Shown one piece after another: positions 23,036-62,270 of a DNA stretch of 64,000 bases. A program made the translations under genes and the position numbers. The stretch comes from an uncultured delta proteobacterium (GTDB taxonomy: Bacteria > Desulfobacterota > Syntrophia > Syntrophales > UBA2185): contig CAVSPA010000005.1 of NCBI GenBank assembly GCA_963729715.1, positions 512,001 to 576,000 on the forward strand, in the 5' to 3' direction. The notes under the pieces are model-generated. The model was given only the letters and a program-made list of their open reading frames with translations, was not told the origin of the DNA and ran no database searches. How positions within the stretch are numbered: the first letter of the stretch is position 1; each line of letters begins with the position of its first letter.

Positions 23036-23063
23036 ATAATATACGGCTCTTCTCTTTTGTCAG
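23036..23063 (-). promoter_or_regulatory. Candidate sigma70 promoter for the activase gene, -35 altered by the IS200 insertion
   Basis: Empty site reads T|TGACA-16nt-TATTAT. With the IS present the -35 reads CTGACA. Confidence 0.45.
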
Positions 23064-23691
23064 TAAACTACCACCGACCTTGTCGGTGGCTTTCTTGAAG
23101 GACGACAACTCCTGACAATGTCATTCGCTGTCGTCCCTCCATAACCCAAGCTGCTCTTCTCGCATCTGATCTTCTACTTGCTCTTTAACATATTTCTGAA
23201 TGGTGGCGCTGTCGATTCCCACAGTGCTCACAAAATAGCCCCCGGCCCATATATGCAGCCCCCAATACTTTTTGCACAATTCAGGAAAATCCCTACGCAG
23301 ATACTCTGCACTTTTTCCTTTGAGGATCTTCATTACATGGGCCGGAGAATATTTCGGAGGAACTGAAAGATACATATGCACGTGATCTGAACATATCGCT
23401 CCTTCTATAATTGTGACGTCAAGCCAGTTGCATAACTCCACCAACAGCTCCTTTAATCTTGGCTTGATCTCTTTCACCAGCACCTGATAGCGGTATTTCG
23501 GAACCCAAACGAAGTGATACTCACATCGGTAAATTGCATGAGATGATTTGTTGTATTCTTCCATACCCTTGCCTCCTATGGATACGTTACAACAAATCCT
23601 ATCTGCTTATCAACATTGTTGATGCGCTAAAGGTGTGGGGCCTCCGCCCCCACGCCCCACCACTGACTATGTCAGTGGTTTTGAGAGATAA
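23063..23691 (-). mobile_element. IS200/IS605-family insertion sequence, tnpA only, 629 bp
   Basis: LE hairpin CCACTGAC-ATA-GTCAGTGG follows a TTTAT target. RE hairpin CCACCGAC-AAG-GTCGGTGG is followed by TAGTTTAC. Ends defined by comparison with the 61784-61975 element. No target duplication. Confidence 0.9.
23121..23564 (-). CDS. tnpA: Y1 HUH transposase
   Basis: YHFVWVPKYR, DHVH (HUH), LKGKS, WAGGYFVSTVG, KYVKEQ (catalytic YxxxQ); AGGAGG RBS. Confidence 0.96.
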   Translation of the reverse strand: MEEYNKSSHAIYRCEYHFVWVPKYRYQVLVKEIKPRLKELLVELCNWLDVTIIEGAICSDHVHMYLSVPPKYSPAHVMKILKGKSAEYLRRDFPELCKKYWGLHIWAGGYFVSTVGIDSATIQKYVKEQVEDQMREEQLGLWRDDSE

Positions 23692-23717
23692 ATAAACTGT
23701 GAAAAATTTGTTGTCCC

Positions 23718-54493: not shown

Positions 54494-54867
54494 GACTGCT
54501 TAATTTGCGATGTAACCTTCTTTTGATGATCTTGAGTGTTGTCGTGGTAGGTATATTATTTATTTTCACTGGAGCATCTGCTAAGGAGGGAAATACACAA
54601 CAGAAAAAGTATGCAGAAGAGTTGACGCCGCAAGGAACCTTGCAAGAGCTTCCATCTCCACCACAGCAAACCCAGAAGTCTCCCTCGGCATCCGTGCCGA
54701 CGTCTTCCGCACCGGAAAATCAAGGTGCCATAAATCCAAGAACGGGTGAATATTATCCACCTTCAGGCAAGGGGGCCATCAATCCCAAAACCGGGGAATA
54801 TTATCCACCCAGCAGTAACGGAGTCATTAACCCGAGGACAGGCGCATATTATCCGCATGTTCCCTGA
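54490..54867 (+). CDS. Small exported protein with Pro/Ser linker and three C-terminal 16-aa repeats
   Basis: Hydrophobic N-terminus ending ASA; GAINPRTGEYYPP-type unit x3. Confidence 0.65.
   Translation: MRLLNLRCNLLLMILSVVVVGILFIFTGASAKEGNTQQKKYAEELTPQGTLQELPSPPQQTQKSPSASVPTSSAPENQGAINPRTGEYYPPSGKGAINPKTGEYYPPSSNGVINPRTGAYYPHVP
54724..54864 (+). repeat. Three tandem 48-bp coding repeats
   Basis: Units start at 54724, 54772 and 54820; differences are mostly synonymous. Confidence 0.85.
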
Positions 54868-60665: not shown

Positions 60666-60896
60666 TTATTTCTTGGGCTCGTCCATCTTCTTCTCTTCCG
60701 CCTTCTTCTCTTCCTTCTTTTCCTTCTTGGCCTTCTTGGCCTTCTTTACCTTCTTCTTCTCTGCCTTCTTCTCTGCCTTCTTCTCTTCCATCTTCTTTTC
60801 TGGTGCCGGTGCGGGAGCCGGAGCCTGGGCGAAGCAGAGGCCGGTCATAGAAAGTGCAAACAGGATAGCGATAAATACTGTCGTGAGTTTCTTCAT
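60666..60896 (-). CDS. Small exported Lys/Glu/Ala-rich disordered protein (Asr-like composition)
   Basis: AGGAGG RBS, signal MKKLTTVFIAILFALSMTGLCFA, then QAPAPAPAPEKK...KKAKKAKK. Confidence 0.85.
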   Translation of the reverse strand: MKKLTTVFIAILFALSMTGLCFAQAPAPAPAPEKKMEEKKAEKKAEKKKVKKAKKAKKEKKEEKKAEEKKMDEPKK

Positions 60897-61695: not shown

Positions 61696-62270
61696 CTACC
61701 GGCCTTTGCAATCCGACTTGCCCTTGCCATAGCTCCCTGTCTCTTCGTTCTTGAGGATGGACCCTTCGAAGGTAAGAACGTAAGTAAACTACCACCGACC
61801 TTGTCGGTGGCCTTCAAAATGCGGCAAGCCTACGGACAATGTCCTTCGCCTTGCCTGATAAGGATTGAAACGGCTATTCTAAAATATTGTTCACCAACAT
61901 TGTTGGTTCACTTAAGGTGTGGGGCCTCCGCCCCCACACCCCACCACTGACAATGTCAGTGGTTTTGACAGATAAATAAAATCGTTTCCCCTGCAGTTAT
62001 AAAACCACTTTTCCATAGGTTTCTTTTTCTCTTTCAGGTAGGTGCGTTTGGTCTTATCGCTCTTGTCTCCCTCCCTTTCATCCGTTCGGTAGTGGCGGCC
62101 CTTCTTAGAACGTATCTTTTCTTTCGACGTCGGCTTGCCGCATTCGAGGAGCGCTTTCGTCTTGGAGTCTCCGACACTTACCCTTCGCCGCATCTGAAGG
62201 CGCCGCTCTCAATACTTCCGGATAATATGAAGCATGCCGCGACTAATACTGAAATAATTATTTTTGTCAT
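61696..62270 (-). pseudogene. DUF2845-like exported protein gene broken by a frameshift (~62181) and a 192-bp insertion
   Basis: Signal peptide, AFRCGEG / VSVGDSK..LLECGKP...EKWFYNC..NDFI|YVLTFEG...GKG. The frame rejoins exactly when the element is removed. Confidence 0.85.
61784..61975 (-). mobile_element. Non-autonomous IS200/IS605 derivative (PATE/MITE-like), 192 bp
   Basis: Same LE and RE hairpins and TTTAT target as the 23063-23691 element; no transposase; no target duplication. Confidence 0.92.

Follow-up and report, generated by a model that had tools for sequence, protein, structure and literature searches.

The window, by which we mean the whole 64,000-nucleotide stretch of DNA analyzed, holds an IS200 element and a gene-less mini-element (mini) that share five hairpins (H1 to H5; Table 1), and comparison of their relatives indicates that pairing of the inner hairpins H3 and H4 is selected both with and without an open reading frame (ORF). 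In a joint judgment, it is fairly probable that the IS200 element moves by single-strand peel-and-paste and that H2, H3, and H4 are accessory single-stranded DNA (ssDNA) hairpins that aid this transposition. The initial annotation had placed five hairpins on the minus strand of both elements, and all five are present in each. It had also held that the extra hairpins are selected and persist without the ORF; the alignments, the tree, and one class of minis (class A) bear this out, but H4 is absent from a second class (class B).

The locus is a tnpA-only IS200 of the IS200/IS605 family. Its single long ORF encodes a transposase that matches NF033573 (E 5.9e-44) and PF01797 (E 2.1e-39) and whose closest solved structures are 2ec2 and 2f4f, with 2a6m and 2xm3 also matched (PDB; IS608 and ISDra2-type TnpA). 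The protein carries the motifs DHVH, Y-x-x-x-Q (YVKEQ in translation), and a C-terminal QLGLW, and tnpB is absent. BLAST searches within the source genome (G000) identified three identical copies, each with different flanks, and at orthologous empty sites the flanks join with zero gap in all nine relatives examined. The flanks of 17 copies and the empty sites show that both the full element and the mini insert 3′ of TTAT, without target duplication and without terminal inverted repeats. Placement of the ends is ambiguous by one base, since a T follows both cuts; this T is found after the right cleavage site in 107 of 114 right ends among the matches listed.

Table 1. Features of the full IS200 element and of the class A mini, in window positions
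Feature	Position	Strand	Basis
IS200 element, 629 nt, tnpA only	23063..23691	-	BLAST in own genome; empty sites
Target/left cleavage tetranucleotide TTAT, host DNA, not duplicated	23692..23695	-	Flanks, empty sites, guide rule
Left guide AAAA, 5′ foot of H1	23679..23682	-	Covaries with target tetranucleotide across relatives
H1, canonical left-end TnpA hairpin, 8 bp, 3-nt loop	23660..23678	-	99.5% paired (91 left ends); 8 double changes on tree
H2, G/C-rich second left-end hairpin, C-GNA-G tip, 3 nt past H1	23632..23656	-	92% paired
H3, probable accessory hairpin: 6-bp tip stem, 2x2 internal loop, 2-bp outer stem	23605..23627	-	Relatives, alignment, tree
Extended -10-like motif TG-T-TGTAAC, putative tnpA promoter	23586..23594	-	Motif comparison across relatives
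Ribosome-binding site GGAGG	23572..23576	-	Sequence
tnpA, 147-aa Y1 HUH transposase	23121..23564	-	Profile and structure matches, motifs
H4, probable accessory hairpin: 9-10-bp outer stem, 3x3 internal loop, 4-bp tip stem with stop codon	23101..23135	-	Right ends, tree
Right guide AAAG	23090..23093	-	Guide-cleavage match in 106/114 right ends
H5, canonical right-end TnpA hairpin	23071..23089	-	98.6% paired
Right cleavage tetranucleotide TTAC, the element’s final four bases	23063..23066	-	Flanks, right-end parse, empty sites
Class A mini (PATE), 192 nt, H1-H2-H3-linker-H4′-H5	61784..61975	-	Copies, empty sites
H4′ of the mini, class-A-specific form, GGAC/GTCC inner stem	61823..61855	-	26/28 class A

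The outermost hairpins follow an established rule. In IS608, four bases 5′ of each hairpin are described as pairing with the cleavage tetranucleotide (PMC3201880). Among the matches listed, this guide rule holds strictly at 147 of 179 left ends, at 160 of 179 when G-T wobble is allowed, and at 106 of 114 right ends, including the combinations AAAA/TTAT (14) and CAAG/TGAC (4). It is obeyed by 77 of 94 distinct left tips, against a mean of 18.5 and a maximum of 33 in 5000 shuffles. These matches identify H1 and H5 as the guide-bearing canonical TnpA hairpins. The RAC-AWN-GTY tip that the initial annotation saw in H1, H3, H4, and H5 is indeed common to them, but its loop is not restricted to AWN: relatives carry any three nucleotides (ATT, AAT, and GTA are commonest), and the A-T pair of the H3 tip is G-C in 7 of 91 left ends.

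The QL-x-LW motif near the TnpA C-terminus (window 23142–23156, minus strand) is conserved in most full elements. It resembles a beta-clamp binding motif. C-terminal peptides of IS200 transposases are reported to bind the beta clamp (PMC3971601).

Each inner hairpin has a distinct structure. In 122 of 124 parsed ends among the matches listed, H2 is capped by C-GNA-G, the middle base being free to vary, and the cited texts describe C-GNA-G as the loop of a very stable DNA mini-hairpin (PMC13037366, PMC3201870). No H2-like motif occurs in G000 beyond the family’s 17 copies. A C/T difference in H2 had been counted as compensatory, which it is not: C gives a C-A mismatch on the top strand, and 63 of 91 left ends do not pair at this position. 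The 3′ arm of H3 overlaps a -35-like hexamer, and its internal loop is GA/GA in 74 of 110 ends parsed among the matches listed, a count from a regex parse that missed 16 of 126 left ends, partly through parser error. The 5′ arm of the H4 outer stem is formed by the last codons of tnpA; the internal loop is usually a 3x3 GAA/GGA, although in three relatives the stem is paired without interruption. H3 is similar to the tip of H5 and H4 to that of H1, and neither H3 nor H4 has a conserved guide. A possible long-range pairing in class B, between the H2 loop and a CCGC run that precedes H5, was rejected, as the run stems from the H4′ deletion and there is no covariation (by eye).

The mini of the window has 14 copies in G000, at different sites and with 94–100% identity, and its orthologous empty sites close with zero gap in all eight relatives examined. 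Because it is gene-less, leaves zero-gap empty sites, and inserts at TTAT without duplication, it is a PATE as defined in PMC3119063. We infer that the minis are mobilized in trans by TnpA, given shared H1 and H5, intact guides, and three intact tnpA copies. Two-ended elements among the matches listed comprise 42 full elements, 28 class A minis, 9 class B minis without H4, and 5 with other deletions, one of them present twice in one genome and with an IS-type H4. Within class A, including nine G000 variants, mean identity is 0.75–0.91 in the hairpins versus 0.47 in the H3–H4 linker. H3 is intact in 47/47 full elements, 32/33 class A, 8/9 class B, and 4/6 other deletion copies among the matches listed. 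Thirty H5-anchored loci, inspected by eye, include 12 complete short elements, all with H1–H3, and four right-end fragments; in none of the 30 is H1 joined directly to H5.

These comparisons indicate that the mini belongs to an old, widespread family of its own and is not a deletion product of the window’s IS200, as had been assumed. The class A H4′ differs from the H4 of full elements: its inner stem is GGAC/GTCC in 26 of 28 class A minis versus TGAC/GTCA in 36 full elements. The initial description of changes between the window’s two copies was accurate for H3 (T-A versus C-G) and inner H4 (T-A versus G-C). The first inner H4 pair uses the stop-codon T as its 5′ base in full elements and is G-C in the same 26 of 28 minis, a double change that fits selection after ORF loss. 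The outer stems of H4, initially described as wholly different, look homologous, since an intermediate form exists in full elements, L012 among them (by eye). A second, independent five-hairpin mini (L042/L064), with a longer non-coding middle and an IS-type H4, occurs as two copies with different flanks in one genome (G059).

Class B copies have three guide types and different flanks. They were seen as single copies, two in genomes of the order and the rest on metagenome contigs, and their mobility rests on the differing flanks; a pattern search of 401 further genomes across the phylum yielded none. H4 looks dispensable, since it is missing from all nine copies and six of them match the left guide rule (by eye).

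Relatives were gathered in three ways: by tnpA (38 loci), by an H1–H2 pattern (25 of 301 genomes of the order, plus at least 120 metagenome stretches), and by an H5 pattern (27 of 339 genomes). Retention of H1–H2 in pattern-gathered minis is partly by construction; H3 and H4 lie outside those search patterns. In the tnpA-anchored set, which is free of DNA-pattern bias, H1-H2-H3 is seen in 29 of 37 loci (by eye), and the remaining eight are truncated, at contig edges, or members of other IS200 families. The sequence-only alignment of left ends contains 91 ends, namely 89 of 94 non-redundant rows and the two window copies; it leaves out L025, L044, L059, L060, and L080, of which L059 and L080 are without an intact H3. 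The right-end alignment contains 45 ends (44 of 50 rows and the window) and leaves out L025, L042, L056, L080, L099, and L198. As shuffles are blind to relatedness, pair states were also mapped on a tnpA tree of 42 full elements whose tnpA core is 64–98% identical.

Pairing is conserved in further copies, as the initial annotation had asked to be checked. In the left ends, 95.8% of cells are paired, and 112 cells show two-sided changes versus 25 in shuffles; slid controls of the alignment lower the paired fraction to 32–55%. The six-pair stem of H3 is 96.9% paired, with double changes at four pairs, and the H4 outer stem has double changes at five of ten pairs in the 45 right ends. On the tree, H3 underwent 7 double changes, 14 changes on one side that left the pair intact, and 7 breaks, every one of them at a tip, and H4 underwent 9 double changes, 13 one-sided pair-keeping changes, and 19 breaks, 11 of them on its outermost, poorly kept pair. 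The one-sided changes in H3 and H4 are G-T on the top strand. The 5′ arm of H4 encodes the last TnpA residues (DDS, DNS, DSS, DKG, DGS, and others), and its non-coding 3′ arm tracks the amino-acid changes of the coding arm. The mini as a whole folds into the five local hairpins, far more stably than chance (z -7.1 as DNA and -6.1 as RNA); of 200 shuffles, 0 reached its stability as DNA and 0 as RNA. Covariation of H3 and H4, with pairing that persists in minis devoid of ORF and promoter, is what argues for selection.

Covariation cannot separate ssDNA from RNA, according to PMC5737381, and the evidence on transcription bears on the choice. An extended -10-like motif lies just 3′ of H3 in 26/41 full elements, 0/24 class A, and 0/8 class B minis; the window’s version is weak and was not picked up by a consensus promoter scan. 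Its absence from all 32 minis suggests that they lost the promoter, and its position 3′ of H3, with the start codon close behind, would place H1–H3 upstream of the inferred tnpA start. In L020, L023, L024, and L037, the start codon is at most about 7 nt past the motif (by eye), and their tnpA mRNAs are apparently leaderless. Contigs from RNA libraries (four runs) span the whole element, including H1–H3, but show neither strand nor ends nor level and may be DNA-derived; no run contains half of the stretch’s words. The loss of the promoter motif in minis, the position of H1–H3, the C-GNA-G tip of H2, and the top-strand G-T pairs favor a DNA role. However, the top-strand G-T pairs would suit an mRNA equally well, the H2 C-A mismatch that most copies have on the top strand would be a wobble pair on the bottom strand, and element orientation relative to GC skew gives no clear support for coupling to the replication fork: 12 of 17 copies have positive top-strand skew, many near zero, in a 19-contig assembly with weak skew.

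The extra hairpins might instead act on transcription, H2–H4 as a terminator or insulator, H3 as a promoter operator, and H4 as a stabilizer or terminator at the 3′ end of the tnpA mRNA, and be kept in minis through milder harm to the host or by inheritance. The left end of Salmonella IS200 is described as carrying a bidirectional terminator and a stem that sequesters the Shine-Dalgarno (SD) sequence (PMC4513863), and here the extended -10 motif follows the 3′ arm of H3 at 14–17 nt (by eye), the stop codon lies within H4, as it does within a hairpin of another IS200 family of G000, and H5 scores as terminator-like on the plus strand. Such a role is nonetheless doubtful: terminator scoring picked up none of H1–H4, H3 and H4′ show double changes in minis that have no promoter motif or ORF, where a transcription-level role cannot explain their upkeep, and a terminator would need no common tip sequence. 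It is very unlikely that the mini serves as, or gives rise to, a structured non-coding RNA whose own function outlived the ORF, one of the two roles initially offered for the extra hairpins. The RNA fold score and the covariation are consistent with such an RNA, as are the tandem GA internal loops, which are also common RNA motifs. In Salmonella, IS200 5′ ends are reported to yield sRNAs (PMC4513863, PMC5435999). Against it, all five helices are local hairpins, the promoter motif is missing from every mini, and the Rfam comparison (Rfam 15) returned no family near its gathering score for either the IS (best 13.3 versus 46.7 bits) or the mini (19.3 versus 39 bits). Neighboring genes are in mixed orientation over the 17 copies. 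Five decayed resident single copies (picked by eye and thus a biased sample) carry 25 pair-breaking versus 10 pair-keeping changes spread over all five hairpins, which shows that the host does not keep resident copies intact. The other initial option, a role at the DNA level, thus accounts better for these data.

Pairing could also have arisen without selection, H3 and H4 being leftovers of an end duplication or of hairpin capture by TnpA that hairpin-templated repair or gene conversion keeps paired. The likeness of H3 to the H5 tip and of H4 to the H1 tip, and the loss of H4 in class B, agree with such an origin, which is nevertheless very unlikely: pairing is kept at 64–98% tnpA identity and against the coding constraint on H4, the mismatched GA loop bases persist where templated repair would erase them, and resident copies do not repair. 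Of 13 variants shared among the 14 mini copies of G000, 10 fall at unpaired positions, one disrupts the variable H2 pair, and one disrupts the outermost H3 pair, which is broken in 4 of the 14. A TnpB-associated (omega) RNA was rejected as a candidate, given no tnpB, a right end about 60 nt past the stop codon, and no Rfam match.

In the favored explanation, accessory ssDNA hairpins, the PATE family would be mobilized in trans by IS200 TnpAs, and H2, H3, and H4 would fold in the top strand while it is single-stranded, both at the replication fork and in the excised circle. Successful transposition would be more frequent with them but would not strictly depend on them. By analogy with IS608, H2 most likely plays the part of the second hairpin, which would steady the complex of TnpA with the left end and bury bases 3′ of H1 that might mispair if left open. 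For their part, H3 and H4 would keep the inner end regions folded, away from guide and cleavage pairing; having the RAC-NNN-GTY tip of H1 and H5 and no guide, they may also be weak, non-cleaving TnpA contacts. In the full element, H3, which lies over the putative promoter, and H4, at the 3′ end of the mRNA, may in addition act on transcription. A bolder and less probable extension casts H3 and H4 as guide-less landing pads that gather TnpA on fork ssDNA beside each end and stay uncut; minis would then compete for scarce transposase, the H3 site, which overlaps the putative promoter in the full element, would negatively autoregulate tnpA, and minis would swap left-end tips, as modules of target specificity, with co-resident autonomous elements.

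More than one hairpin per end is already known. The initial annotation took a single hairpin per end as canonical; hairpins in addition to these two have been described before (PMC3201880, PMC5934647, PMC4513863). In IS608, the left-end palindrome is followed on its 3′ side by a second hairpin, whose deletion is reported to lower complex levels (PMC3201880). This second hairpin is described as dispensable in vitro for cleavage and strand transfer, as blocking extended target pairing, and as present in ISDra2 and IS605 too (PMC5934647). Competing right-end hairpins and a PATE-like copy are described in Halanaerobium (PMC7290912). The present element resembles IS608 and ISDra2 in its Y1 TnpA, a guide at the 5′ foot of the hairpin, and the absence of target duplication (PMC3201880, PMC5934647), and H2 is the positional analogue of the second left-end hairpin of IS608 (PMC5934647). 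Unlike those elements, it lacks tnpB and has perfect 8-bp stems in H1 and H5, a T after both cleavage sites, and inner hairpins, H3 and H4, that copy the H1/H5 tip. With Salmonella IS200 and IS1541 it shares a short, tnpA-only organization and more than one left-end inverted repeat; in Salmonella IS200 the second repeat lies in the 5′ UTR and sequesters the SD sequence (PMC4513863), whereas here H1–H3 would be upstream of the inferred promoter and some relatives are leaderless in appearance (by eye).

The mini resembles the PATEs described in Haloquadratum walsbyi (PMC3119063) and Geobacillus (10.1101/2023.03.14.532601), which are gene-less and have neither terminal inverted repeats nor target duplication; near-terminal palindromes in common with an IS200/IS605 element and many near-identical copies are further parallels (PMC3119063). 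It differs from them in having five hairpins rather than bare ends, its own co-evolved H4′, and left-end tips that match several autonomous subfamilies. REP/BIME and REPIN sequences with TnpA-REP likewise combine a Y1 HUH gene, set among several related hairpins, with scattered copies that carry no gene (PMC6006769). A REP/REPIN identity was rejected, as guides across relatives are of the AAAA, TAAT, TAAA, or AAAT type with no GTAG foot, TnpA has IS200-type (subclass 1.1) motifs, and the whole unit moves with fixed ends. G000 holds at least three other IS200 families with 36–40% TnpA identity (13 further tnpA matches; C3, C4, C5, C6, C9, C18). In one of them, present seven times and with about 40% TnpA identity, the right end carries three hairpins, of which one covers the stop codon, and a long stem spans the ribosome-binding region; two others have one right-end hairpin.

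The mechanism class, peel-and-paste with PATEs, is thus already known, and extra end hairpins of IS200/IS605 elements were noted before, one of them tested in vitro with a small effect. A literature search covering mainly open-access papers found no published evidence of inner hairpins that copy the TnpA-bound tip and stay paired in gene-less derivatives. It likewise found no study of extra-hairpin conservation at IS200/IS605 ends; the supplements of PMC3119063 (Table S9), PMC5934647, and PMC3201880 may show further multi-hairpin ends. The family provides a natural experiment, with full elements, five-hairpin minis, H4-less minis, and compensatory changes inside an ORF-less lineage, and its many natural guide/target pairs are useful for TnpA retargeting.

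Left-end tips seem to have been exchanged between minis and autonomous elements (e.g., window 61944–61975, L039, L044, L076, L047, L061, and L133). Of 20 class A tips, four match a full element’s tip exactly across 31 nt and nine are nearer to a full element than to any other mini, the compared sequences being short; in eight pairs of minis the bodies are 85–94% alike and the tips only 61–74%. The window’s mini interrupts a small gene (61696–62270, minus strand) that is intact, with 128 aa, in the relative L221, and the interrupted copy also seems frameshifted near 62180. The gene presumably encodes a DUF2845-type protein. Elsewhere in the window there are 48-nt tandem repeats in three copies and a run of low-complexity repeats (54724–54867 and 60670–60800), which probably belong to coding sequence. 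An old right-end fragment of a mini, half of H4′ plus H5, occurs in G000 (C3:18974–19031) and in L260; in G000 it directly follows an antitoxin-like HTH gene (assigned by eye) and sits at the same place in a relative.
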